Sequence record: NZ_CP065264.1
Direction: 5' to 3' (one strand)
Origin: a plasmid
DNA length: 18,117 nucleotides
The notes under the pieces were generated by a model that was given only the letters and a program-made list of their open reading frames with translations, did not search any database and was not told where the DNA came from. The stretch's first letter is position 1. Each line of letters opens with the position of its first letter. Of this stretch, positions 2,691 through 14,019 are shown one piece after another. A program made the translations under genes and the position numbers.

Positions 2691-2879
2691 AGCTGCCTAT
2701 CCTCCACCGCACCCCCCGACAACACCTGGCCAACACACACGCCTAACCGTGCGCACACCACCCCGCGCGCAACCCTCCCCGACAACCTCACCAACCCCGC
2801 CTACCTGCACAACCACTACAACACCCACAGACCTTTTGCACTAAGGTCACGAAAAGATAACGACTGCTATTCTGTGTGC
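2691..2879. promoter_or_regulatory. Divergent promoter region and candidate oriT for the MobF relaxase.
   Basis: About 130 nt of the plus strand are C/A-rich and almost free of G. CCCCGACAAC occurs as a direct repeat at about 2714 and 2777. A low-GC stretch at 2830-2873 holds the hairpin GACCTT-ttgcact-AAGGTC (2830-2848) and a TANNNT -10-like TATTCT (2868-2873), placed for a leaderless transcript starting at GTG 2880. MobF oriTs usually lie next to the relaxase gene with an IR 5' of nic. Confidence 0.3.
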
Positions 2880-5800
2880 GTGACCGCGACTTGTCACAAG
2901 CTGACCGCCGGGGACGGGTACGAGTACCTGACCCGGCAGGTCGCTGCGTACGACAGCACCGAAAAGGGCCGCATGTCGCTGGCGGACTACTACCACGCCA
3001 AAGGCGAAGCGCCCGGCCGCTGGGTCGGTTCGGGGTTGAAGTACCTCAGTGACCCGGCGGGCCGATCACTGACCGACGAGGAACGCCAAGACTGGACCGT
3101 GGACGAAGGTTCGGAGGTCACGGCCGAACAGATGAAGGCACTGTTCGGTCTCGGGCAGCACCCGAACGCCGAGCAGATCGCCACGAAAGCCGTTGCCGCA
3201 GGCGTACACCCAGATGTCGCCAAGAAGATCCCTCAGCTGGGCCGCCCATTTCCGATCTACACCAAGGCATCCGAGTACCGGAAGGCATGCGCCGAGGCAT
3301 TCGGCGCCCACAATGAACACCGGGGCCAGCACGCCGCAGCGGCCATCGACGACGACGTGCGCGCACACATCCGCAGCGAGGTTGCCCGAGGAATGTTCGC
3401 CCAGCAGCACGGCCGACAACCCGATGCCCTTGAACTCACCACGTTCATCGCCGAACATTCACGCCCGGCCACCATCGCCGTGTCCGGGCACGACTGGTGC
3501 GCAAGCCCAGTCAAATCCGTCTCCACACTGTGGGCCGTGTGCGGCACCCGCGAGCGCCAGCTCATCGAACTCGCCCAGGACTTGGCCGGGCAGGGCGCGA
3601 TCCAATCCATGGAGCGCAACAGCCTCTTTACCCGCATGGGCGCCCAAGGCGTCCAGCAGCTCGACGCCACCGGATTCATCGGCACCGCCTTCACCCATCG
3701 CCAAAGCCGAGCAAATAACCCCGACCTGCACACCCATTACGCATTGAGCGCTAAGTGCCGCGCGATCGGTCCCGATGGTGTCCCCCGCTGGCTGGCCATG
3801 GATGGCCGCCCGTTCTACAAGTCGCTCGTCGCGATGTCCGAAACGTACAACTCGCTGCTTGAGGCGTACCTCATTGAATTCCTTGGTGTGCAGTTCGTGG
3901 AGCGTCCCACCGAGCCTGGCAAGCGGCCCATCCGCGAGATCGCCGGTATCTCCCCGGAACTGATGGAGTTCTGGTCGCAGCGGGCCAAGATGATCGACGA
4001 TCGGCTCGCCGAACTCACGATCAAATTTCAACGGGAAGTGGGCCGCGAGCCCACCGCCTCGGAGGCATACGACCTGTCGCAGCGCGCCACGTTGGAGACA
4101 CGGCAGGCCAAGATGGAGCCGCAGTCATTCGCCGAGCAGCGCGAGAGCTGGCACCGCGAAGCAGTCGAAGTGTTGGGCTCGGAGAAGGCCCTGGCCGAGA
4201 TGTTGACCAATACCCTTGGCCGCCAGCAGCACCGCGCACAAGAACCAGTCAGCGCCGAATGGATCGCCGACAAAGCCACCCAGTTGCTCGCCACCGTGGC
4301 CGAGTCCCGGGCCAAATGGCAGTGGGCGCACGTGCACGCCGAAGCCTGGCGCATCGCCCGTGCCGAAGGCGTTGCCCACCAACCGGACATCGCCGAGCAG
4401 CTCACGAACGCGGCGCTCGGACGCAGCATCCGCGTCGCCTCCACCGCTCTCGACGGGGAACTCAACGAGCCCGATTTCCTGCGGCGCCGCAACGGCGAAT
4501 CGGTCTACACCACGCACGGCACCGACATGTACACCTCCGCTGACATCGTGGCCGCCGAACGGCGAATCGTCGCTGCCGCGACAGAACGAGGTGCCCGCCG
4601 CCTCGATGCTGACAGCATCGATATGGCGCTACTAGAGCACGCGGCGAACAGCGACTTCGCACTCAACGCCGATCAAGCGGCCCTCGTGCGTGCGCTCGGC
4701 AGCTCCACCGCCGGAGTGCGACTCGCGCTCGCGCCCGCCGGAACCGGCAAGACCACCGCCATGTCCGTGTTGTCGCACGCATGGGCCGACAGCGGCGGAA
4801 CGGTACTCGGGCTCGCCCCCACCGCCGCAGCCGCCGAGATCCTCGGCGCAGAGATCGGCACCAACGCAGACACTCTCGCCAAGTACGTGCACTGCACCAC
4901 TCATCCCGAACATCCAGTGCCCGCATGGTTCGACCGGATCGACCACAACTCGCTCATCCTGGTCGACGAAGCGGGCATGGCCGCCACCTTGGACCTCGAT
5001 GCACTTATCGCCCATGCGCGGGGCCGCGGCGCCACCGTTGTGCTCATCGGCGACGATCAGCAGCTTGCCTCCATCAGTGCTGGCGGTGTCCTGCGCGACA
5101 TCGCCCACGTCTGCGGGGCCACCACCCTGACGACAGTGGTTCGGTTCGCTGACCCCGCCGAATCGGCCGCCAGTTTGGCACTGCGCCAGGCCGATCCGGC
5201 AGCCCTGGGCTTCTATCTGGACAACGAGCGCGTGCACATCGGCTCCGATGCGGCTGCCGCGGACATGGCCTACACCGCGTGGCGCGCCGACATCGATGCA
5301 GGCATCGACAGCATCATGCTTGCGCCCACCACCTCGACCGTCACCGAACTCAATCAACGCGCCCAGGCCGACCGCATCGCCCGCACCGGGCGCCGGGCCG
5401 GGCGAGCCAGCAGCCTGCGCGATGGAACCCGCGCACACGTCGGCGATGTCGTATTCACCCGGAAAAACGATCGCCGCCTGACAATCTCGGGCACCGATTA
5501 CGTGCGCAACCGGTACCGCTGGACCGTCCGCGAAGTACACCGCGACGGTTCGCTGACAGTGCAGCAGATCACCAAATCCACCAAGCCCGGCCGCATCGTG
5601 CGGTTGCCCTCCAGCTACACCGCCCGGCACATCACTCTCGGCTACGCCGCCACCGTGCATGCCGCCCAAGGCTTAACCACGATGCGCTGCCACCTCATCG
5701 GAGCAGCCTCCCTGACACGCCAGTTGCTATATGTGGCGATGACGCGCGGCAAGCTGGGTAACCACATCTACTTTTCCACCGCCGAACACGATCCCCACAA

Positions 5801-8624
5801 GATCATCAGCGCCAGCGCCCTGCTGCCCGAGACCGCCACCGAAATCCTCACCAAAATCCTGGAGCGCGACGGCTCTCAACACTCGGCGACCAGCGCCCAG
5901 CGTGATGCGCAGAACCCGTTCCTGCGTCTGGCACACGCCGCCGGCTACTACAGCGATGCCGTGGAATCCTGCGCCGAACACCAGCTCGGCGCCGACATCA
6001 TGGCCGCCATCGATCAGGGCGCCAATGAGCTGTATCCCCAGCTCACCGAAGCAGACGCCTGGACCGCGCTGCGCAAACACCTCGCCCTGCGCGCATTACC
6101 GGACCAGGACGCCAAAACTGCTCTTGATGTTCTGGCCGCCGCGATCACACGGCGCGAGCTCGACACCGCCGACGATCCGGCCGCTGTCCTGCACTGGCGC
6201 ATCCAGCAGCGCACCGGCACCCAAGGTCCACTCCCCTGGCTCACCGCCATCCCCGCCGAGCTGCAACAACAGCCCGACACCGCGATCTACCTGCACGCGC
6301 GCTTCTCGCGGGTCCGGGACCTCGCCGAGGAGGTACACACCGCCGCACTCGCCTGGACCTCTGACACCGCGCCCCGCTGGGCGCAGGCACTGCATGCCGC
6401 CGACCCCGTGCTTACCGCCCGCATCGCCGTCTTCCGCGCCGCGTGCGGCATCGACGACGCCGATCAGCGCCTCACCGGCCCCGACCAATACGCAGTCACC
6501 CTGCGCAGCCACCAAGCAGTGCTGATGAAGGCCGCCGCAGCGGCCCTGCCCGGGCTCGACGCAGGCCGCAGCCGCTGGACCGACGCAGTACGCCACCTTG
6601 ACCCACGACTGCCCGACGATCCCTACTGGACTCAGCTCACGCACCTGCTCGACGACATCGAGCGCGACGGCTTTGACGTGTCCCAGATCCTGGAGGCTGC
6701 CGCCACCAAGCCCCTACCTGCGGACATGCCCGCCGCGGCCCTGTGGTGGCGGGCGATGCGCGCCATCCACGGCGACACCCGACCCAGCAGCGCCGCACCC
6801 GCTGAGCTTCTTGAGCTATGGACCAGGGAGAAGAACCTCGCCGATCAGCTCGCCGAGCTTGAAACAGCCCAGGCCGAACCCACCCATTGGGGCACACCGC
6901 ACCTGGCCGCGTTCAAAGACCGCTACGGGCAACTCCTTAGCGAATACCGCCGCCAAGAACCCCACCACCGCGCCGTCACCGACGCCTACGAGCGCTGGCT
7001 GGCCGCCGACCGCGAACTCACCGCCGCCAACCGCACCACCGACCGGGAGAACCCGGCCGACACTGACGAACGCCGCGCCAGGGCCGCCGGCGCCGAACAG
7101 GCCGCCCGCGACACCCTGCACCACGCACAGCAAGAGCGCGCGCACGCCCTCGGCGGCGCCCAACCGGTCACCGACACCATGCTCACCGAACTCGTCGACG
7201 AAGCCCTCCGGGCCGATCGCCGACTACTGGAAGACACCCGAAACAGATTGCAGCGAGCCAAAACACGGGCACGTAGCGCCGAACAGCAGGCGGCGATCGA
7301 GGCTGTCAAAGACACCGGCAGAACCAGCCGCGGCGAAGAAGACGACCTCACCCAGATCCGCCTGGCCTACACCCTGCTCGAGGACGCCGCACACACCCAC
7401 GCCCGCACACCCCGGCCCAGCATCGACCAGAGCGGGCTCAGCGCCGACCAGATTGCCGTAGCCCGCGAACTCGCCCGCTCGCCGTACACCCTCAACGTGC
7501 TCACCGGCACCCCGCAGGACACCCGCGCCGTGCTGGACAGCATCCGCGCCGGAGCTGAACGCCAGCAGCGCACCGTCCACGACATCACGGCCGCCGACAC
7601 CATCGGCGCCGACGACATGCTCGACGCGATCGTCCTAGTCTCCGATGCGGACCGCTGGGAACTGCCCGCCCTGCACCGTCTCGCCGAGACTGCACGACGC
7701 GAACACGCCAAACTCATCCTGGCGGGCGATCCTCAAACAGCCGCCGCCACACCCCATTTCCGGGCACTAGCCGCCGAACTGCCCTGGACCCAGGCCGCGC
7801 ACGAACAGCGCCACGCGGCCACACCGGAAGTCGTTCTCGCATCCACCACACAAGAGGCCACCACATCAGCAATCCAGGCCGCCCAACATGATCAGGCAGC
7901 AGGTGTCGATGCCGTCATCCTCGCCGCAGGCCCGCAGCAGGCCGATGCCCTCAACACCGCAGTACACGAGCGCGGCGCGGCACGAGATCGTGTGGCCATC
8001 GGCTGGCATCACCTCGGCGTCGGCGACATCATCACCACCACCGCGGCCACCGAAACCGCAGACGGCACCGCTGTCGCTCCTGGCGGGCGCTGGACCATCA
8101 CCGAACTCGACCAGGACGCCGCGACCGCCCAGGCCATACGTCGCGACGACCCGTCCGTCACGATCACCGTGGGCGAACACACCCTCTACGAGCTCGGCTA
8201 CGCCCAAACCGCGCGCACCTATGCCGCCGGCCCGGCCGCCGACCGAATTCACCTGCCGATCGACGAGCACACCGCGGGCGCCGAACTGCACACCAGTCAC
8301 CACGCCGACACCACGCTGTACGTGGCCGCCACCAGCACCGAGGAAGCCGCCGACGTCATTGCCGCCGCCCAGGCCCGCGATACCCGGCCACGCCTCGTAC
8401 TCGATACGAAAGCCGAGGCCGCGCAGCGCAAAATCGACAACAGCGAGAAGGTATCGCCGATCGACAAACTCGCCCTGCAACTCGTCGACAAACGCGCACA
8501 GCTCAAAGCCGCCGCCACCGAGCATTACCGGCAATGGACCGCCCGCCAACAACGAGCAGCTCAAGCACGCCAACGCGCCGCCGAGCGGGGACGCTCCAAC
8601 GACGGCCCCGGCCTGTCTCTCTAA
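2880..8624 (+). CDS. traA: MobF/TrwC-family conjugative relaxase-helicase (TraA-like), about 1914 aa. It has an N-terminal HUH relaxase domain, an active RecD-like helicase, an Ala-rich coiled-coil segment and a C-terminal degenerate (vestigial) second helicase-like domain.
   Basis: Relaxase motif I is HKLTAGDGYEYLTRQVAAYD...SLADYYHAKGEAPGRWVGSGL with catalytic Tyr residues. The 3-His motif is NNPDLHTHYAL. Walker A is LAPAGTGKTT, Walker B is LILVDEAGM, followed by VVLIGDDQQL, TVHAAQGLT and LLYVAMTRGK. The track ORF begins at 2454, but everything upstream of 2874 is low-complexity and overlaps the divergent membrane-protein gene. GTG 2880 (alternative 2874) is the first start that keeps the catalytic-Tyr motif. 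Confidence 0.9.
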   Translation: MTATCHKLTAGDGYEYLTRQVAAYDSTEKGRMSLADYYHAKGEAPGRWVGSGLKYLSDPAGRSLTDEERQDWTVDEGSEVTAEQMKALFGLGQHPNAEQIATKAVAAGVHPDVAKKIPQLGRPFPIYTKASEYRKACAEAFGAHNEHRGQHAAAAIDDDVRAHIRSEVARGMFAQQHGRQPDALELTTFIAEHSRPATIAVSGHDWCASPVKSVSTLWAVCGTRERQLIELAQDLAGQGAIQSMERNSLFTRMGAQGVQQLDATGFIGTAFTHRQSRANNPDLHTHYALSAKCRAIGPDGVPRWLAMDGRPFYKSLVAMSETYNSLLEAYLIEFLGVQFVERPTEPGKRPIREIAGISPELMEFWSQRAKMIDDRLAELTIKFQREVGREPTASEAYDLSQRATLETRQAKMEPQSFAEQRESWHREAVEVLGSEKALAEMLTNTLGRQQHRAQEPVSAEWIADKATQLLATVAESRAKWQWAHVHAEAWRIARAEGVAHQPDIAEQLTNAALGRSIRVASTALDGELNEPDFLRRRNGESVYTTHGTDMYTSADIVAAERRIVAAATERGARRLDADSIDMALLEHAANSDFALNADQAALVRALGSSTAGVRLALAPAGTGKTTAMSVLSHAWADSGGTVLGLAPTAAAAEILGAEIGTNADTLAKYVHCTTHPEHPVPAWFDRIDHNSLILVDEAGMAATLDLDALIAHARGRGATVVLIGDDQQLASISAGGVLRDIAHVCGATTLTTVVRFADPAESAASLALRQADPAALGFYLDNERVHIGSDAAAADMAYTAWRADIDAGIDSIMLAPTTSTVTELNQRAQADRIARTGRRAGRASSLRDGTRAHVGDVVFTRKNDRRLTISGTDYVRNRYRWTVREVHRDGSLTVQQITKSTKPGRIVRLPSSYTARHITLGYAATVHAAQGLTTMRCHLIGAASLTRQLLYVAMTRGKLGNHIYFSTAEHDPHKIISASALLPETATEILTKILERDGSQHSATSAQRDAQNPFLRLAHAAGYYSDAVESCAEHQLGADIMAAIDQGANELYPQLTEADAWTALRKHLALRALPDQDAKTALDVLAAAITRRELDTADDPAAVLHWRIQQRTGTQGPLPWLTAIPAELQQQPDTAIYLHARFSRVRDLAEEVHTAALAWTSDTAPRWAQALHAADPVLTARIAVFRAACGIDDADQRLTGPDQYAVTLRSHQAVLMKAAAAALPGLDAGRSRWTDAVRHLDPRLPDDPYWTQLTHLLDDIERDGFDVSQILEAAATKPLPADMPAAALWWRAMRAIHGDTRPSSAAPAELLELWTREKNLADQLAELETAQAEPTHWGTPHLAAFKDRYGQLLSEYRRQEPHHRAVTDAYERWLAADRELTAANRTTDRENPADTDERRARAAGAEQAARDTLHHAQQERAHALGGAQPVTDTMLTELVDEALRADRRLLEDTRNRLQRAKTRARSAEQQAAIEAVKDTGRTSRGEEDDLTQIRLAYTLLEDAAHTHARTPRPSIDQSGLSADQIAVARELARSPYTLNVLTGTPQDTRAVLDSIRAGAERQQRTVHDITAADTIGADDMLDAIVLVSDADRWELPALHRLAETARREHAKLILAGDPQTAAATPHFRALAAELPWTQAAHEQRHAATPEVVLASTTQEATTSAIQAAQHDQAAGVDAVILAAGPQQADALNTAVHERGAARDRVAIGWHHLGVGDIITTTAATETADGTAVAPGGRWTITELDQDAATAQAIRRDDPSVTITVGEHTLYELGYAQTARTYAAGPAADRIHLPIDEHTAGAELHTSHHADTTLYVAATSTEEAADVIAAAQARDTRPRLVLDTKAEAAQRKIDNSEKVSPIDKLALQLVDKRAQLKAAATEHYRQWTARQQRAAQARQRAAERGRSNDGPGLSL

Positions 8625-9031
8625 AGACCGACAGCGCTCAGCGGGTGCGCAGACTGTGTCTTGCCGCTGATCGCCGCGTTGAAATACGCGATCGCCGCCT
8701 CGTGTAACCGATTGCAATGGACCACGGACGAACCGTCCCACTGCTCCTGCCTTTTGGACCACTCGGCCATCCGCAGCGCGACCGCCGCGCCGGGGGCGGC
8801 ATAGAAGAAATCGAACTGAGCCTGCTCTTTCCACGGCCCCGTGGGTATCGCGGCGACCATGGCGCCGGTGCTCAAGTACACCCACACCGAGGCGCCGACA
8901 TTGTTCGACTTCAAATCGAGTGCGTCAAAGGGCGCCGGCAGATCCCGATCGTTACAGGAGTGATCCAGCACAGCCCACCCGGCAGGAACCGGTTCATTCG
9001 TGTTCACCATGACACCATCATGGCCGTTCAC
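8621..9031 (-). CDS. Hypothetical 136-aa protein, last gene of the minus-strand operon. Candidate partner or immunity-type protein for the upstream 787-aa modular protein.
   Basis: GTG start at 9031 lies 16 nt after the stop of the upstream gene on the same strand. Third-position GC is consistent with coding. Trp-rich; no recognisable motif. Its 3' end converges on the relaxase stop with a 4-bp overlap. Confidence 0.45.
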   Translation of the reverse strand: MNGHDGVMVNTNEPVPAGWAVLDHSCNDRDLPAPFDALDLKSNNVGASVWVYLSTGAMVAAIPTGPWKEQAQFDFFYAAPGAAVALRMAEWSKRQEQWDGSSVVHCNRLHEAAIAYFNAAISGKTQSAHPLSAVGL

Positions 9032-9046
9032 GTGGACATCCTGTGT

Positions 9047-11410
9047 TTAGAGGCCACTGATCCTCTCGGCAGCCGCCACCGCATACGTGGCATCGGCCAG
9101 GTTCGGCTCCTCAGCGCTCAGATGCATCGCCGCCTCCAGGATCTGCGCAGAGATCCACATCGGCCGATATACGGCCTGCATCATCATCTCTACTTCGCCC
9201 GGCGGACCATACTCGCCCGCACCCGTGCGGTTAGTGGAGGCGAGCTGCTGGCGCAGGCGATGCTCACGGCGCAACTCATCGGCCAACTTCTCCGAAACAC
9301 GTTGCTGAGCACCAAGACTGGCGAAAGCATCATGGCCGCACGTGGGCAACTCAGAGCCTTCTGTCAGCGGCAACAGGCGGCGAGCGCGAAGCGCCAAATC
9401 ATCGATCACAGCCTGAGGATGATCCTTGGCCGCGCTCAGCCGCTCGTGCGCGCCGGGCTCAAGTGAATTCACGCGGTGATACCGATCAAAAGTCAGTCCT
9501 GGATCTTCGGCATTCCACGCGAACGGGCTGGCGTCTCGATCAACCCAGCACACCGGGATCTCCCGACGCTCAGCAGCAGTCGTCGAGCCCGACGTGGCCA
9601 GGCCCAGTAGAGGAGTGCCGCCCGCTGCCACGCGAGCATCGCCGTACTCAATCATCACGCGTGTCACGTCGATCCAACCGAACCAGCGCCGCAAGAAATC
9701 CAGCGGCAGGGCTGGATCCGTCAGGGCCGGAACCAACGTTCTGACGGGAATCACTGGCTGCGGTATGCAACCCCAACCGTAATTCGACACCATCAGCGTC
9801 CCTATGCCGCCGTACGGCATCTCGAACAACCCCACCGCGAACTCAACATGCCACCACTCCTGGCGACACGCATGCAACAGCTCCCACACCAACATCCGTG
9901 CCGGACCAAAATCAGGCCACCCGACTTGCTCGGCCGCACGCTCCACAGCGGCCCCGGCCGCCCCTGAACCCGCCAACAACGCACCAGGTGCGCCAGTCCC
10001 GCCACCAGGATTCGGCGGCGCAGCCGGTCCAACCGGAGCACCAGGGGAAGGAGCAGCCGCAGTGGCGCTACCGCTTCCACTTGCGCGTATATCCGACCCG
10101 AACGGTGGCAACGAACCCCCACCAGCAGCCGGGACCGCAGAAGGGCCGGGACCAACCGGCGCCACCGGAACAGGCTGCGCACCAGCACTACTCAGAGCAA
10201 CCGCAGCCGGTGTCCCACCAGCACCAGGTACTGCGCCCGGAGCGCCGAGAGGTGTCGGCGACATCGGCGGCCGAACACCCTCAGCCGGCGCCAACGGCCG
10301 CACCACAGCAGGTGCAGCAGGAGCCGAGGCGGCCGACGTGAACCCCTTTGCAAAATCCTGCACCGGCCCGCTAGGCGCTGCCGATGGTACGGCACCCAGA
10401 CGCGGAACAGACGAACCATTTCCCAAGCCGCCCAACGAATTCGACGGCTTCATGCCCGACGACAAACCACCCAGCATCGACGACCCGCTGCCTGAGCCCG
10501 CGCTAGGACTCATCCCACCCGCCAACGGCGAAGCCGGAATACCGCGTCCAGCAGCCGAACCCACACCAGGATCGGCGACACCCGGTGTCCCGGACGTTGC
10601 CCTATGTGCCGCCGATGATTCGGGCGTCGAACCGTCGGCTTGGCTTTGATCGGCCCGTCCGGAGGACTCGCCTTGAGACGTGGAGCGATGGCCGTTTTTC
10701 GCGGAGTCGCTTTCTGAAGCTGGTTCACGGCCATTGTCTCCCTCGGATGGAGGAGACATCGGTCTGTGATCGCGCCGGACTCCGCCACCTTTTTCTGTTA
10801 CCGAGTCGACCGGGTGGACTGCATTCCCGCCGTGAGGTGCAGGTGCGCCAGACCCGTTCTTACTGGCAGCTGCGCCAGTCCATACAGGCGCGGCGGCTGC
10901 CAGAGCTTCGATCTCAGCGGTGGCTTTGGCCACCGCTGCATCGACCTCTAGACCAGCGGCAGGGACTATCCTCGCGATCTCCGCGCCCAGCGCCATCGGG
11001 TTTCCCGCGAACTTCGCTTCGGCTGCTTCGATCTCGGCGTGTGCTTCCTCGTCGATACGCATGATTTCGAGCCGCAATGTCTGTTGAATCGCGCCCGCTT
11101 GAAACAGCATGGGCGATTCCTTCGCGCACCCCTCGGCCAGCTCGTTCCATAGGCCCAATTCCTGCTTATAGGCGTGCACTGAGGCCGCGGCAAAAATGCC
11201 CTTCTCCTCAGACTCGACCTCGGCGATAGCGCGTCGCACGCTCCCGGCCGCCGCCTGCGCATTTTCGTGCTCAGCGCGCCCAGCAGCAGCTAGATCACCG
11301 ATCAGGCTCGGCGGGCACTCTGGCCAGCCCTTGCGGATAATCACCTTGGAGAAACGACGGTTCGGCATCGACAGGGCCATAAAACTCACACTAAGCCCGC
11401 AGAGCCGCAC
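9047..11410 (-). CDS. 787-aa three-part protein: N-terminal alpha-helical domain (~200 aa), a ~330-aa Gly/Ser/Ala/Pro-rich disordered linker, and a ~300-aa Cys/Trp/His-containing globular C-terminal domain. Its architecture resembles ESX-associated Esp/CpnT-like secreted effectors.
   Basis: A continuous 2.36-kb frame with three distinct compositional modules. The linker is the cause of the spurious antisense ORF at 9804-10649. The C-domain contains WELLHACRQEWWHVEF, SNYGWGCIPQ and PTCGHDAF. The exact start is uncertain; GTG 11410 or ATG about 11380. Confidence 0.65.
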   Translation of the reverse strand: MRLCGLSVSFMALSMPNRRFSKVIIRKGWPECPPSLIGDLAAAGRAEHENAQAAAGSVRRAIAEVESEEKGIFAAASVHAYKQELGLWNELAEGCAKESPMLFQAGAIQQTLRLEIMRIDEEAHAEIEAAEAKFAGNPMALGAEIARIVPAAGLEVDAAVAKATAEIEALAAAAPVWTGAAASKNGSGAPAPHGGNAVHPVDSVTEKGGGVRRDHRPMSPPSEGDNGREPASESDSAKNGHRSTSQGESSGRADQSQADGSTPESSAAHRATSGTPGVADPGVGSAAGRGIPASPLAGGMSPSAGSGSGSSMLGGLSSGMKPSNSLGGLGNGSSVPRLGAVPSAAPSGPVQDFAKGFTSAASAPAAPAVVRPLAPAEGVRPPMSPTPLGAPGAVPGAGGTPAAVALSSAGAQPVPVAPVGPGPSAVPAAGGGSLPPFGSDIRASGSGSATAAAPSPGAPVGPAAPPNPGGGTGAPGALLAGSGAAGAAVERAAEQVGWPDFGPARMLVWELLHACRQEWWHVEFAVGLFEMPYGGIGTLMVSNYGWGCIPQPVIPVRTLVPALTDPALPLDFLRRWFGWIDVTRVMIEYGDARVAAGGTPLLGLATSGSTTAAERREIPVCWVDRDASPFAWNAEDPGLTFDRYHRVNSLEPGAHERLSAAKDHPQAVIDDLALRARRLLPLTEGSELPTCGHDAFASLGAQQRVSEKLADELRREHRLRQQLASTNRTGAGEYGPPGEVEMMMQAVYRPMWISAQILEAAMHLSAEEPNLADATYAVAAAERISGL

Positions 11411-11440
11411 TTTCCCGGGTCGAAATTTTGTTCGATCAAG

Positions 11441-12043
11441 CTACGGGACCACCGGCTCACCGAGCTGGCGGCAATAACCATTAATAGGGTTTCCGACCTC
11501 GGCTGAGTCGTTGAATATGTACCGCGCGTCGGCGGTCCAAAACTCATCGTGCACAACCAGATTTACCGCGACAGTTCGATCAATCATCCGGCGGCCAGCC
11601 CGATCTAGCCATCCTGAACCTTGCGCCCTAACCAGGGTATCCAGAGATCCCTTCGTGCGATCGGCCCAGCCGTTGACCCAGGAGCTATAGCGTTGGAACT
11701 CAGCACCAGTCGGTCCGTGGTCGATCACTGCCGATGGCATCATGTCGATGGTTTCGGCGAGTAACGGGCGCATCGTGCGGCACCACTGCTTGTCGGATTC
11801 CTTATTGAAGATGAAACTCTCGACAGTCGCCGACCCGGACGGAGAAGTTGATGAGGCGGCGGGTGGTGAGACATCCTTGCGAGCTGACCCGGCAATGAAG
11901 ACAGCGGCCACCGCACCGATCAACGCCGCCGCGCTCATCACCGCCGCCGCCACGACCAATCCGCGCTGGCGCGGCGGAGGCGGAGAACCTGCTGGGCCGG
12001 GCATGTAGTGTTGCGGTGCAACGTAATTCGGTGAACCGTCCAT
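11441..12043 (-). CDS. Membrane-anchored protein, 200 aa: a Pro-rich N-terminus, a single TM helix (LVVAAAVMSAAALIGAVAAVFIAG), then a ~130-aa extracytoplasmic domain.
   Basis: ATG at 12043 shares one nucleotide with the upstream gene's stop (TGATG overlap). It lies 30 nt upstream of the 787-aa gene. Confidence 0.6.
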   Translation of the reverse strand: MDGSPNYVAPQHYMPGPAGSPPPPRQRGLVVAAAVMSAAALIGAVAAVFIAGSARKDVSPPAASSTSPSGSATVESFIFNKESDKQWCRTMRPLLAETIDMMPSAVIDHGPTGAEFQRYSSWVNGWADRTKGSLDTLVRAQGSGWLDRAGRRMIDRTVAVNLVVHDEFWTADARYIFNDSAEVGNPINGYCRQLGEPVVP

Positions 12044-12690
12044 CAGATTTCCCGCACACTAGCCTGCTCGCCAGCAGCTTTCGTGTCGGCCGAATCAATC
12101 AGTGTGATCCCGCCGTGGCGACCTACAGCGTTCGACGAACCCTGCCCGCCGGCATGAGTTTTACCCGCAGCCTTAAACGCAGCGAATTTCGCCACCAAAG
12201 TACCCACCGCCGCATCAGTAGGACTGGTGCCCACAGCAGCAGGAGCACCCGAAGTATGAGCCGCATGCTCGGCAGATTCCGCTTCCGCCTTACTAGTAGC
12301 GGCCCGAGCCTTCTCCGGATCGAGCCGCACCTGCTGCCCCGAACCCCCAGGACCAGCCCCTGGAATCGAGCTGGCAGCGGGCGCAGTCGCACTCGTCGGC
12401 GAAGCTAACCCTTGAAGCATCGACAGCGGCTGCTGAATACCCGACAGCGCCGGGCTTACAGCCTGCGACAACTGGTTAGGCAACTGACCGACTTGCGAGC
12501 CGATCTCCTGGACAGGCTGCAAGAAGGTCGATGGGTCAATGCCGTTGGCGGGCAAATCAGAACCGAGGCCCGACGCATCCGCACTACCGGCGGAATCCGC
12601 AGGAGACGCACTGTGCGAGGCAGCTGCGCCAGGCTCACGCTCATCACCAAGCTCTTGTCCAGAGTGCGGATCTGGTGAAGCCGCGTTCAT
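12043..12690 (-). CDS. Low-complexity Ala/Ser/Gly/Gln-rich 215-aa protein, unknown. Contains Gln-rich repeats such as LPNQLSQAVSPALSGIQQPLSMLQGL.
   Basis: ATG at 12690 overlaps the stop of the upstream 180-aa gene (ATGA). No TM segment. Compositional bias is the only signal. Confidence 0.5.
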   Translation of the reverse strand: MNAASPDPHSGQELGDEREPGAAASHSASPADSAGSADASGLGSDLPANGIDPSTFLQPVQEIGSQVGQLPNQLSQAVSPALSGIQQPLSMLQGLASPTSATAPAASSIPGAGPGGSGQQVRLDPEKARAATSKAEAESAEHAAHTSGAPAAVGTSPTDAAVGTLVAKFAAFKAAGKTHAGGQGSSNAVGRHGGITLIDSADTKAAGEQASVREI

Positions 12691-13229
12691 AACGGCATCG
12701 TATCCCCAGGTGGAGGACTATGAGTGGGTGGATTCGGCTTCATTGCGCATATCGGGCACACAGCCAGAAACTCCTTGTGCTTGATGTCCGCCGCCTCACG
12801 GCGCTGTGCACCCATCCGCTGCGCCATACCAACGAGATCCCCGGTGCGATCGTCAAAATACGCATCACGCAACAGCCACGCCTGTTTTTCTGCAACCGGT
12901 AGGGACTGCCACTGATCAGACTTCATTACCGTCGCGGTGAATTCGCGCCGCTGGCGGGACTCCGCCCCCCGAGCCCGGATTTCGGCCTCAAGGAAATCAC
13001 GCAGATGAGTACGCCACGCATCGGCAGCAGCAGCCGCAGCCTCGATCGCATCAATTCGCTCAGCGATCGTTTTCTGCGGGTCGGATAACGCCGACGCCGT
13101 TTCGTACAGTTCCCCCAGTACATCTAGCGGCGGTACCCACCGATCGGCAGACACCACCTGCCCTTTCAAAACAGACGGCGACAAGGTCCACGGATCAAAC
13201 GGCGGATCTGGCGGCTGCGGAGTACTCAT
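12687..13229 (-). CDS. Hypothetical 180-aa protein and first gene of the minus-strand operon. It has a CPIC motif near the C-terminus.
   Basis: ATG at 13229 starts it. Its stop is coupled to the next gene through an ATGA overlap. No recognisable family. Confidence 0.55.
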   Translation of the reverse strand: MSTPQPPDPPFDPWTLSPSVLKGQVVSADRWVPPLDVLGELYETASALSDPQKTIAERIDAIEAAAAAADAWRTHLRDFLEAEIRARGAESRQRREFTATVMKSDQWQSLPVAEKQAWLLRDAYFDDRTGDLVGMAQRMGAQRREAADIKHKEFLAVCPICAMKPNPPTHSPPPGDTMPL

Positions 13230-13295
13230 ACCCGCATCGTATGCCCAGTTTCAGCCCCGTGAACGGGGTCAATTTCGCGAGGCCCGTGCGGCACT

Positions 13296-13432
13296 TCCCC
13301 TCCCCTCTGGCCCTGATTGTGCGTTGGGTGGTGGTGCTGTCAAGGCCATGCCGCTGCGCGGTCGGTCAAAGCCCGAGCCTTGACAGCACCACCACCCAAC
13401 GTGAGATCGGCCAATATGAGGGAAGGGGAAAA
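13296..13432. promoter_or_regulatory. 137-bp palindromic divergent control region. Its core is a perfect 25-bp inverted repeat (13322-13346 and 13377-13401) separated by a 30-nt loop.
   Basis: CGTTGGGTGGTGGTGCTGTCAAGGC ... GCCTTGACAGCACCACCACCCAACG. Outer arms TCCCCTCCCCT / AGGGAAGGGGA match at 10 of 11 positions. The region lies between the operon start (13229, -) and the 193-aa gene (13438, +). Confidence 0.5.
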
Positions 13433-13437
13433 ATCAG

Positions 13438-14019
13438 GTGATCCCCGATAACCAGCCTTTGCCGCCACTGATAGCTACTGTGATCAGTATGGAGCTTTCC
13501 GGTCGTTACCTGCGGCTTTTAGACACCTACGAGGAATACCTCGTGTTGCGTGACATGCTCAACAGAATCGACGAAGTATTGGTTTCCGCCGAACGCAGCA
13601 GGGTCGAGGAACGACCACTATTCACCGTGCGCCACATGCACGACCTCTATGCAGCGTCCCCGTACATCGAAGTCTCATTCGACCGCCAGCGCGAGGCCGA
13701 GCGAGCCCTGGCCGCCGCGGTGGAAACATACCGCAAAGCGTTCCACGCAGTAACCCGGGGCCGCGAAGATGTCACGAAAATTGTTGCCAAGCAAGGACTT
13801 CCCTACCCAATCGATTTAGAATCCGATTCCCGTAAGCGGCCCGCACTGTTGCCCTGGTGGCAACGCGTCGGCCGTTATCAGTGGCGCGGCGGAGAGATAT
13901 TCATCGAACGGCCAACAGGCGACAGATTCCAGCCCATGAACAGCCCAGACCCCACACAGGCCATCGAGATTGAACGCAGCGCTGGCCGCCGCGAGATCAC
14001 TTCGCAACAGCCCACCTGA
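13438..14019 (+). CDS. Hypothetical 193-aa cytoplasmic protein and first gene of the lower-GC accessory island.
   Basis: GTG at 13438 is preceded by GAGGGAAGGGGAAAAA (SD-like); the alternative start is ATG 13489. Codon third positions are GC-biased as in a real frame. No known motif. Confidence 0.5.
   Translation: MIPDNQPLPPLIATVISMELSGRYLRLLDTYEEYLVLRDMLNRIDEVLVSAERSRVEERPLFTVRHMHDLYAASPYIEVSFDRQREAERALAAAVETYRKAFHAVTRGREDVTKIVAKQGLPYPIDLESDSRKRPALLPWWQRVGRYQWRGGEIFIERPTGDRFQPMNSPDPTQAIEIERSAGRREITSQQPT

Follow-up and report, generated by a model that had tools for sequence, protein, structure and literature searches.

A Y-shaped hairpin of mycobacterial plasmids as a probable single-strand origin or single-stranded DNA promoter in Mycobacteroides abscessus pGD22-2

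The complete circular plasmid pGD22-2 of Mycobacteroides abscessus (cluster pC; sequence record NZ_CP065264.1), whose 18,117 bp are the window analysed here, carries a long Y-shaped hairpin that is probably a single-strand origin (sso) or single-stranded DNA (ssDNA) promoter, similar in kind to Frpo or to the M13 minus origin and acting on the transferred strand. This reading draws on the structure of the element, the covariation of its arms, promoter-like motifs that are asymmetric between the strands, the distribution of its core among replicons and its dispensability for plasmid maintenance. The hairpin may, as we tentatively propose, belong to a class of ssDNA promoters or origins that spans phyla and has so far gone unrecognised. 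Such elements decide the establishment of plasmids that arrive or replicate as a single strand. To our knowledge, the ssDNA promoters characterised to date all come from enterobacterial IncF/IncI plasmids, and the sso types all from Firmicutes. A class spanning Actinomycetota, Pseudomonadota and Chloroflexota would widen the ssDNA-promoter concept and provide a searchable marker.

Fold and anatomy of the hairpin

Plasmid pGD22-2, tabulated with its relatives in PMC12995706 and PMC8092301, encodes a TrwC-type relaxase-helicase (mobF), a serine resolvase, ParA and a probable replication protein (Rep) with an HTH_36 domain. The initial annotation had described a perfect 25-bp inverted repeat with a loop of 30 nucleotides (nt), inside a 137-bp palindrome between a minus-strand operon and a plus-strand gene for a 193-amino-acid protein. 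A repeat search of the window confirmed the repeat, with arms 100% complementary over 25 nt and 30 nt between them, and the list of open reading frames (ORFs) its location, flanked by the minus-strand ORF 12687-13229 and the plus-strand 193-amino-acid ORF 13438-14019. The outer arms (13295-13307 and 13418-13430; 13 nt, 12/13 matched, 92% complementary) were also found and extend the structure to ~136 nt, but the palindrome is not continuous. Read upwards from its base, the structure has a 13-bp outer stem and a 4-nt bulge, then helices of 5 bp (GGCC) and 3 bp, then a 4x4 internal loop and the perfect 25-bp stem, which leads to a three-way junction with two mini-hairpins at the tip. Its parts are as follows.

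13295-13430, minus strand (the strand that would fold and act as ssDNA): whole Y-shaped hairpin, ~136 nt (DNA fold, helix map).
13322-13346: left arm of the 25-bp stem, whose minus strand carries the -35 hexamer and the 16-nt spacer (repeat search, helix map).
13347-13350: junction spacer CATG, 4 nt, between the inner stem and mini-hairpin 1 (helix map).
13351-13361, minus strand: mini-hairpin 1, CCGC-GCA-GCGG, a G-N-A triloop closed by C:G (GCGNAGC type).
13362-13376, minus strand: mini-hairpin 2, TCGG/CCGA in the window, variable in sequence with pairing kept.
13377-13401: right arm of the 25-bp stem, the proposed template-side arm on the folded minus strand (repeat search, helix map).
13408-13430, plus strand: conserved right flank CGGCCA(A/G)TA(T/C)GAGGAAGG, pairing with 13295-13312 as lower and outer stems (alignments, helices).

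By our own arithmetic, 18 kb should hold ~1e-9 perfect inverted repeats of 25 bp within 100 nt. Fold significance was assessed against dinucleotide shuffles (n=200; shuffle mean ~-27 to -28.4 ± 3 kcal/mol). As ssDNA, the plus strand folded at -57.7 kcal/mol, with shuffles at -28.4 ± 2.9 kcal/mol (z = -10.1) and 0/200 shuffles equalling it, and the minus strand at -58.3 kcal/mol (z = -10.0). We read the element as an ssDNA hairpin and not as the cruciform that the initial annotation had considered, which would form in double-stranded DNA (dsDNA). Mini-hairpins of the GCGNAGC type melt at 70-76 °C, bind the ssDNA-binding protein SSB poorly and occur at ssDNA priming sites, namely the complementary-strand origins of G4, St-1 and alpha3, RSF1010 ssiA and the N4 early promoters (PMC13037366). 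Their stability depends on a C:G closing pair (PMC3201870), which is present in mini-hairpin 1 of pGD22-2. The core of the element can be written as the pattern GTCAAGGC...CCGC-NNN-GCGG...GCCTTGAC, of which the window holds one copy only, answering the earlier suggestion to look for the same inverted repeat elsewhere on the replicon.

Promoter-like motif on the minus strand

A consensus scan of 13150-13550 returned a sole sigma-70-like site, TTGACA-16-CACAAT on the minus strand (10/12 matches; 0.2 expected), and no terminator-like site. The site and the start that it predicts lie within the hairpin.

13338-13343, minus strand: -35-like TTGACA, within the conserved inner stem GCCTTGAC (independent consensus scan).
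13316-13321, minus strand: -10-like CACAAT (plus strand ATTGTG), at a 16-nt spacer from the -35 (consensus scan).
13411-13413, plus strand: predicted first templated positions of an RNA or primer, rightward, 6-8 nt past the -10 when carried across the GGCC/lower stem.

In the window fold, CACAAT begins exactly at the end of perfect pairing, with its first four bases, CACA, in the 4x4 internal loop. On this model, the predicted plus-sense transcript would begin (C)CAAUAUGAGGGAAGGGGAAAAAUCAGGUG... and enter the 193-amino-acid gene, with the flank 13408-13430 as its predicted 5' end and the Shine-Dalgarno-like GAGGAAGG inside it.

Mycobacterial homologs and covariation of the arms

BLAST of 13285-13445 against PLSDB (72,556 plasmids) matched 68 plasmid records, 64 of them from Mycobacterium, Mycobacteroides, Mycolicibacterium and Mycolicibacillus. 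The hairpin was single-copy in nearly all 68 and always lay within unannotated DNA. Its orientation was fixed relative to rep and mobF in the mycobacterial loci examined, both genes lying 1.5-4 kb rightward on the same strand, and in all mycobacterial homologs examined mobF and rep were plus-sense, along with the majority of the genes downstream of the hairpin, as are the 193-amino-acid gene, the resolvase gene, rep and mobF in pGD22-2. The immediate neighbours varied among homologous plasmids, being divergent, convergent or tandem.

Fifteen distinct homolog sequences made up the mycobacterial alignment. On the minus strand, GGCCTTGA was invariant in all 15, with the next C kept in 14/15, and CACAAT was invariant in 15/15 while the neighbouring stem varied. 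The lower stem, CTTCCTC...GGCC / GGCC-AGTAY-GAGGAAG, was conserved across the set, and the mid-stem was freely variable. The relation between the arms was examined with an alignment-free test, in which the right arm of each sequence competed with those of the others as partner of its left arm: in 11/15 sequences the own right arm was the best partner (own 10.9, cross 6.5 ± 2.6). Judged from these sequences, the own-arm preference is covariation for pairing. RNAalifold on a MAFFT alignment of the same 15 homologs gave a poor consensus because arm-length indels misaligned the arms. The Y-shaped architecture was common to six homologs from other, unrelated replicons.

A strong conserved secondary structure with covariation could also belong to a structured small RNA, such as an antisense or copy-control RNA. 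We regard this as barely credible: Rfam gave no match at E <= 1 on either strand of 13000-13700, there is no conserved promoter outside the hairpin, and C:G-closed G-N-A triloops are a DNA-specific stability motif (PMC3201870, PMC13037366). In addition, copy number is normal in deletion derivatives that lack the hairpin, and the hairpin occurs on replicons with unrelated replication systems.

The homologs also bear on a conventional dsDNA control region, in which the minus-strand motif would be the promoter of the minus-strand operon and the inverted repeat the operator of a dimeric regulator, as the initial annotation had proposed for a dimeric repressor, or a bidirectional regulatory hairpin. 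The 16-nt spacing is normal for such a promoter, the operon starts 87 nt downstream of CACAAT and the region is divergent in pGD22-2. In homologs, however, the left gene is usually on the plus strand, so that a leftward promoter would be antisense to it, and the 20-nt spacing found in most mycobacterial homologs is poor for a dsDNA promoter. A dsDNA promoter would also leave the arm covariation, the conserved Y-tip, the strand-specific G-N-A loops and the cross-phylum core unexplained. As for an operator, the genes for ribbon-helix-helix (RHH) proteins and ParA do not co-vary with the hairpin and the flanking genes differ among homologs. Moreover, an RHH or ParG-like protein specific to one plasmid cannot account for a core that is kept on unrelated replicons in several phyla (see below). 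We therefore consider a dsDNA control region improbable as the function of the element, and a secondary dsDNA promoter role possible in pGD22-2, given the 16-nt spacer.

The core on other replicons

The exact 23-mer core GTCAAGGCCATGCCGCTGCGCGG was found in three places only among one genome each of 185,579 species. It was present in a Chloroflexota metagenome-assembled genome and in a Shimia chromosome, where it again formed the inner arm and loop start of a hairpin. The Chloroflexota copy (Promineifilaceae; 23-nt core at 193-241) and the copy of Shimia sp. MIT1388 (610-690, with dctM on one side and, on the other, a methyltransferase gene and then tpiA) had no obvious mobile-element context.

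The generic 42-nt core matched 87 PLSDB plasmids. It was found on pRE8424 (Rhodococcus), pYQ39 (Pseudomonas) and pZMO1A (Zymomonas), whose replication proteins belong to Pfam Rep_1, the pC194/pUB110 rolling-circle family, on pBBR1 (Bordetella) and pBBR1-like MOBV plasmids, and on plasmids of only 1.0-1.5 kb from Salmonella, Klebsiella, Yersinia and E. coli. Among 5,426 complete genomes of E. coli, the enterobacterial version of the core occurred 9 times, always on tiny plasmids, with 0 chromosomal copies. Across the matches, the core co-occurs with TrwC (MOBF), MobA/MobL (MOBQ) and MobV relaxases and with relaxase-free Rep_1 plasmids. Its presence on Rep_1, MOBV, MOBQ, TrwC-linked and integrase-island replicons and, in E. 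coli, on plasmids only is what an ssDNA conversion signal would show. The plasmid pBBR1, from which widely used broad-host-range vectors derive, has the core at 1279-1320, ~460 nt upstream of rep, in a region that is presumably the one annotated 'pBBR1 oriV' in common cloning vectors. Many laboratory constructs may carry it, and it may affect the mobilisation and host range of the derived vectors.

The degenerate core pattern was found in at least 120 metagenome contigs and in one viral contig only. A phage origin of the element was set aside on account of this single viral contig and of a search of the phage collection, which gave no match to the element. As the environmental search pattern fixed GTCAAGGC, CCGCNNCGCGG and GCCTTGAC, only the remaining positions are free observations, and the counts in this and the next paragraph hold among the matches listed. 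Hairpin 1 was CCGC-GNA-GCGG on the minus-equivalent strand, with the free A of G-N-A in 113/127 copies (89%). Variants with a GTA loop were the only ones to contain GTAGCGG. Hairpin 2, which the pattern left unfixed, had GNA loops in 58 copies and loops of opposite polarity in 9. Its stem took 40 distinct forms among 100 distinct sequences, and 51% formed perfect stems of >= 4 bp vs 0.9% of shuffles. Stems seen outside the window include TCGA/TCGA, TGGCCGG/CCGGCCA and GCGC/GCGC. The commonest junction spacer was CAAG. In the own-arm test, the own partner arm ranked at about the top 6% (n=118).

At 16 nt past TTGACN, A (60%) and T (52%) were enriched four positions apart over a background of 10-15%, and A-N-N-N-T stood in the -10 register in 67/122 copies vs 18/122 on the other arm. 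In the folded copies, pairing after the -35 was ~75% at positions 2-18, ~33% at 19-26 and ~45-50% at 27-39. The low-pairing zone at 19-26 is, as modelled, a bubble at the site of the -10-like motif in the environmental family. The minus-equivalent strand folded more stably in 89/122 copies.

These features bear on whether the element could be an ssDNA priming site for a primase (G4-type DnaG, or a plasmid or host primase-primosome), with the promoter hexamers incidental. GCGNAGC and GCGNNAGC mini-hairpins, which bind SSB poorly, typify the primase-dependent origins of G4, St-1, alpha3 and RSF1010 ssiA (PMC13037366). A primase site would account just as well for the occurrence of the core on rolling-circle and mobilisable plasmids, and the clear -10 in 55% only of copies is compatible with it. 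For such a site, TTGAC in the conserved inner stem with a strand-specific A-N-N-N-T 16 nt away would be unexpected, as would the invariance of CACAAT in the mycobacterial group. We accordingly hold a primase site to be unlikely.

The environmental neighbours mixed housekeeping and mobile-element genes. The TrwC relaxase gene of one metagenome locus (L022) ended 46 nt before the element, and another locus (L039), with a MobA/MobL relaxase plus TrfA, looks like a 4.9-kb circle. Other neighbours were tyrosine integrases with series of small genes after them on the same strand, IS110-family transposases and Fic. A conserved gene directly downstream of the core was also sought and discarded, the naive first-ORF calls being low-complexity junk and the 'ccATG' motif belonging to the outer stem.

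Passive spread of a selfish palindromic repeat without function for the plasmid, whether like a repetitive extragenic palindrome (REP), a REPIN or a miniature inverted-repeat transposable element or as a preferred target of the IS110 family, would accommodate the environmental copies near housekeeping genes, the contigs with two copies and the IS110-family transposase gene that ends ~275 nt from the core in three loci. It is nonetheless quite improbable, given the single copy in nearly all 68 plasmid records, the position and orientation conserved relative to rep and mobF and the lack of chromosomal copies in the 5,426 E. coli genomes. Furthermore, a cross-phylum core points to a universal host partner and not to a lineage-specific transposase, and no RAYT-type gene was seen among the neighbours of environmental copies. 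A dispersed repeat of the REP or mycobacterial interspersed repetitive unit type, the outcome that the initial annotation had named as refuting a special role, is likewise not what was found, with one copy per plasmid, the 23-mer in three places among 185,579 species and 0 E. coli chromosomes. For the environmental relatives, REP-type dispersal is less settled than for the pGD22-2 replicon.

Three further sets of copies were noted. At L053, L062 and L084 (metagenome), the IS110-family transposase gene shares the strand of the core and ends a fixed 273-290 nt ahead of it, and this sequence subfamily recurs in at least 8 further soil contigs; the IS110-family element either targets the hairpin or carries it. 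Two core copies in opposite orientation are present in Pseudomonas pA29J1 (98-139 and ~898-940) and in L094, L041, L105 and L115 (in the last at 5511-5561 and 7242-7286), an arrangement that would make sense if rolling-circle-displaced and transferred strands differ. Streptosporangium/Streptomyces plasmids (H103, H109) gave partial matches, 5-9 per plasmid and one at position 834 of an 85-kb record, comprising two GCGAAGC-type mini-hairpins only, without the GTCAAGGC arms; these may be telomere-type palindromes of linear replicons.

As features of the proposed class we would tentatively put forward the GTCAAGGC/GCCTTGAC inner stem with its -35, the Y-tip of two G-N-A mini-hairpins, the covarying long stem and a -10 at the stem-loop boundary. 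If the class holds, rolling-circle, mobilisable (three relaxase families), integrative and non-tuberculous mycobacterial MOBF elements would all recruit the universal host RNA polymerase through it to ssDNA that enters the cell or is displaced. A full-text literature search did not find a description of the motif, and older subscription papers may have mapped individual members; the M. abscessus plasmid papers PMC12995706 and PMC8092301 make no mention of the element. The one full-text match to the arm sequences that looked relevant, a mutagenesis primer in a RepB' primase paper, was dismissed as coincidence.

Proposed function

The 'secondary origin' among the options of the initial annotation comes close to the explanation that we favour, a single-strand origin or ssDNA promoter, with the function itself inferred from the features above, as are RNA polymerase binding, start site, priming and the identity of the transferred strand. 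As ssDNA, the minus strand of pGD22-2 would fold over ~136 nt into the long hairpin, most likely upon conjugative entry, when the minus strand would be transferred by the MobF relaxase. The stem would re-create a duplex -35, TTGACA, with CACAAT 16 nt off, where pairing stops and the internal loop begins, and the two very stable G-N-A mini-hairpins at the tip would probably maintain nucleation of the fold and keep SSB off it. Host RNA polymerase holoenzyme would bind this promoter mimic and start a plus-sense RNA at ~13411-13413, with the 3' arm as non-template and the 5' arm of the same strand being read, moving away from the loop. The RNA would prime complementary-strand DNA synthesis and, in pGD22-2, may also be an early mRNA for the 193-amino-acid gene and the plus-strand genes up to the resolvase. 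If so, the orientation of the element would reveal the transferred strand in mycobacterial plasmids.

Several observations weigh against this proposal or limit its reach. The TTGACA/CACAAT spacing of 16 nt, being normal for dsDNA, could simply drive the minus-strand operon in pGD22-2. In most mycobacterial homologs the spacer is 20 nt, not 16 nt, with a bulge, and the fold of M. avium pS2c pairs CACA, part of CACAAT, beside a 6-nt bulge, so that the picture of a bubble at the -10 is not uniform. In pMAB23-type and Mycolicibacillus plasmids the immediate downstream genes are on the opposite strand, and an mRNA role can therefore not be general. Among the environmental matches listed, A-N-N-N-T is in register in 55% only of copies, and many environmental copies adjoin housekeeping genes. 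A test of G:T vs A:C wobbles showed no strand bias (stems 124 vs 140, hairpin 2 22 vs 29), and was uninformative because bulges break the ungapped register. Along the transfer path, the hairpin lies ~7.5 kb from the candidate origin of transfer (oriT) described below, farther than classical Frpo elements. Finally, the CTTGATA motif of pYQ39 is on the opposite strand, and the orientation argument for rolling-circle plasmids, given below, leans on a rule for the displaced strand.

Transferred strand and candidate oriT

For mycobacterial plasmids we know of no oriT, transferred strand or leading region. A screen of Mycolicibacterium plasmids with oriTDB found no oriT (PMC8190616). In pGD22-2, a conserved noncoding block directly upstream of mobF is a candidate.

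2821-2885, minus strand: candidate oriT directly upstream of mobF, separate from the hairpin (GGTCACG...CGTGACC inverted repeat, then TTAGTGCAAAAGGTCTGTGGG).
2880-8624, plus strand: mobF, a TrwC-type relaxase fused to a helicase (Pfam TrwC 2e-65, AAA_30 4e-56; start per the pGD42-2 annotation).

MOBF plasmids of Rhodococcus, Prescottella (P. equi), Gordonia and Mycolicibacterium carry this block in conserved form upstream of mobF, with the motif GTTATCTTTTCGTnACCTTAnTGCAAnAGGT(C/G)TGTnGG after the inverted repeat. Its GGTCT/GT resembles what we take to be the nick regions of R388 (TTGTCT/AT) and F (GGTGT/GG). Classical MOBF and MOBP systems as a rule transfer the strand that serves as template for the relaxase gene, which in pGD22-2 would be the minus strand. 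Judging from its sequence, the block has a far stronger claim to be oriT than the palindrome has, and it likewise points to the minus strand. The path of transfer would then be 2828 -> 1 -> 18117 -> 13430, a leading segment of 7.5 kb with the hairpin at its distal end, and priming or transcription from the hairpin would, by analogy with Frpo, run back toward oriT. Elsewhere, the functional form was on the rep-sense strand in 3/3 Rep_1 plasmids (pRE8424, pYQ39, pZMO1A) and antisense to the relaxase gene in 5/6 lineages. The rep-sense strand would, by the rule for rolling-circle Rep_1 plasmids, be the displaced one; a check of the nick motif (CTTGATA) was ambiguous. Together, the hairpin and the block upstream of mobF make concrete, testable predictions for plasmids of clinical relevance in M. 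abscessus, M. avium and M. chimaera.

The palindrome itself could instead be the oriT of the MobF relaxase, nicked 3' of the hairpin near 13410, as the initial annotation's nick site would have it; the deletion in pGD42-2 (see below) would then reflect relaxase termination at a pseudo-nick. MOBF relaxases bind a hairpin 5' of nic (PMC9868005), and the orientation of the element is fixed relative to mobF. On the plus strand, the DNA retained after the deletion resumes 10-12 nt 3' of the perfect arm, in the polarity expected of nick-to-pseudo-nick circularisation, GAGATC is present at both deletion junctions and GAGATCGGC is repeated 11 nt beyond the left junction. However, oriTs are relaxase-specific, yet the core accompanies three unrelated relaxase families, including MOBQ and MOBV, and relaxase-free Rep_1 plasmids, and the element lies 4.7-7.5 kb from mobF. 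The block conserved in four genera directly upstream of mobF has, on the minus strand, the arrangement of a hairpin followed by a GTCT-like motif, a plus-strand nick at the palindrome would leave the G-N-A loops and the promoter-like arm on the untransferred strand, and the deletion junction shares a 2-bp microhomology only. An oriT at the hairpin, which the junction 10-12 nt 3' of it had brought to mind, was discarded in view of the MOBQ, MOBV and relaxase-free occurrences and the better candidate at mobF, and we consider it very improbable.

Deletion derivatives

By BLAST, pGD42-2 (9,547 bp, cluster pA; pGD08 is of identical length) is pGD22-2 minus 4843-13410, with both flanks 100% identical.

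4843-13410: segment missing from pGD42-2/pGD08, containing the hairpin, the minus-strand operon and the greater part of mobF.

The 9,547-bp form occurs in two strains at a copy number of 2.6-2.9 (PMC8092301). As these plasmids are maintained without the hairpin, it is not the vegetative origin and is dispensable for maintenance. At the junction, 4842 is joined to 13411, 13412 or 13413 through a 2-bp CC microhomology, so that the right end of the deletion coincides with the RNA start predicted at 13411-13413. By our own arithmetic, the chance that a random breakpoint falls within 2 nt of a given site is ~3 in 10,000, and ~4% for one confined to the palindrome.

On the proposed ssDNA-promoter function, complementary-strand synthesis would have started at 13411-13413 on an incoming minus strand, the new strand would have run round to a break at 4842 and the resulting linear duplex would have been circularised through end joining, which is plausible as mycobacteria have Ku/LigD. 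We infer that pGD42-2 may have arisen by such priming plus end joining; the alternative is a hairpin-stimulated deletion during ordinary replication. If priming is the cause, the pGD42-2/pGD08 deletion would be a natural footprint of the initiation point, and the origin of the common 9.5-kb pGD42-2 from pGD22-2 would have an explanation.

In pGD42-2/pGD08, mobF is cut within the helicase domain and fused in frame-proximity to the 193-amino-acid gene, and this truncation makes their 'mobilizable' annotation doubtful. The left junction lies within a small hairpin, GCCGAG-ATC-CTCGGC, and the 9-mer GAGATCGGC (13404-13412) recurs at 4853-4861. A second rearrangement breakpoint at the element was seen in pGD69B-2/pGD69A-2 (94% identical), which have a 466-bp insertion with a 121-amino-acid gene exactly at the outer edge of the hairpin (4444-4911 of pGD69B-2, corresponding to window 13441-13443).

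Comparison with known systems

The Frpo/ssi ssDNA promoters of IncF and IncI1 plasmids were reportedly described by Masai & Arai in 1997, with classes 1-3 said to occur in pESBL and F. Host RNA polymerase is thought to make mRNA or primer from the transferred strand at Frpo/ssi, which are inactive once double-stranded (PMC12672017, PMC11541004). The pGD22-2 element resembles Frpo in its long hairpin on one strand, its -35/-10 with sigma-70 spacing on one arm and, in the window fold though not uniformly in relatives, the imperfect pairing around the -10, and it would share the transcription toward oriT over genes templated by the transferred strand. It differs in being GC-rich, in its length of ~136 nt, in its three-way-junction tip with two G-N-A mini-hairpins, in a core kept across phyla and present also on rolling-circle plasmids, and in its distance from the candidate oriT. 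BLAST of the element and core against the 72,556 PLSDB plasmids matched no IncF- or IncI-sized plasmid.

An RSB and CS-6, TAGCGT, in the terminal loop are hallmarks of ssoA, and the SSO of pRE8424 is said to have been mapped downstream of rep, where the core lies. An sso is a structured, non-coding and strand-specific element at which host RNA polymerase makes the lagging-strand primer (PMC5714925), and sso1 of ICEBs1 supports establishment after conjugative transfer (PMC4595007). Like ssoA, ssoT, ssoU, ssoW and ICEBs1 sso1, the hairpin is non-coding, heavily paired and dispensable for vegetative replication, and its core is found on Rep_1 plasmids. Unlike it, the described sso types are from Firmicutes. 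By inspection, the CS-6 TAGCGT is absent from the window element, which reads CGCAGCGG, and TAGCG is not on either strand of 13285-13440, hairpin 1 reading CCGCGCAGCGG. The ssoA primer is also thought to run toward the loop, whereas that of pGD22-2 would run away from it.

The M13 minus origin has promoter-like hairpins recognised by RNA polymerase. At the G4, St-1 and alpha3 origins, as proposed here, folded ssDNA that escapes SSB recruits a host enzyme, and GCG(N)NAGC mini-hairpins are found at G4-type sites (PMC13037366). The M13/f1 and G4 elements differ in being phage elements, the present core occurring in one viral contig only, and in having two or three separate hairpins in place of one long stem with a Y-tip. 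With the MOBF oriTs of R388, F and pKM101 the hairpin shares an inverted repeat, a TrwC-type relaxase plasmid and a fixed orientation to the relaxase gene; it differs in not being relaxase-specific, in its distance from mobF and in having no recognisable nick motif 3'. Parvovirus terminal hairpins and Streptomyces telomeres are Y/T-shaped ssDNA fold-backs with small G-N-A-looped tip hairpins. They are terminal on linear DNA and serve end replication, whereas the pGD22-2 element is internal on a circular plasmid, and the partial matches on Streptomyces plasmids (mini-hairpins, several per plasmid) have no GTCAAGGC/GCCTTGAC arms. By analogy, the hairpin would function like Frpo/ssi and sso, yet without shared sequence and with a distinctive Y-tip and cross-phylum conservation.

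Genes around the hairpin

The first gene downstream of the predicted RNA start, that of the 193-amino-acid protein, was taken from the ORF list and its translation.

13438-14019, plus strand: 193-amino-acid gene, with a GTG start 8 nt after the GGGAAGGGGA motif.

Its product, and six other pGD22-2 proteins, had no significant match in Pfam, NCBIfam or PDB. Outside the deletion, pGD22-2 and pGD42-2 differ only in two adjacent substitutions, 3287-3288 AT -> GG, in the relaxase domain of mobF. The plus-strand ORF 1-1458 has an HTH_36 domain as in the Rep proteins of pBBR1 and of M. chimaera plasmids, and probably runs across the record start, which would account for the rep gene missing from the PLSDB gene table of pGD42-2.

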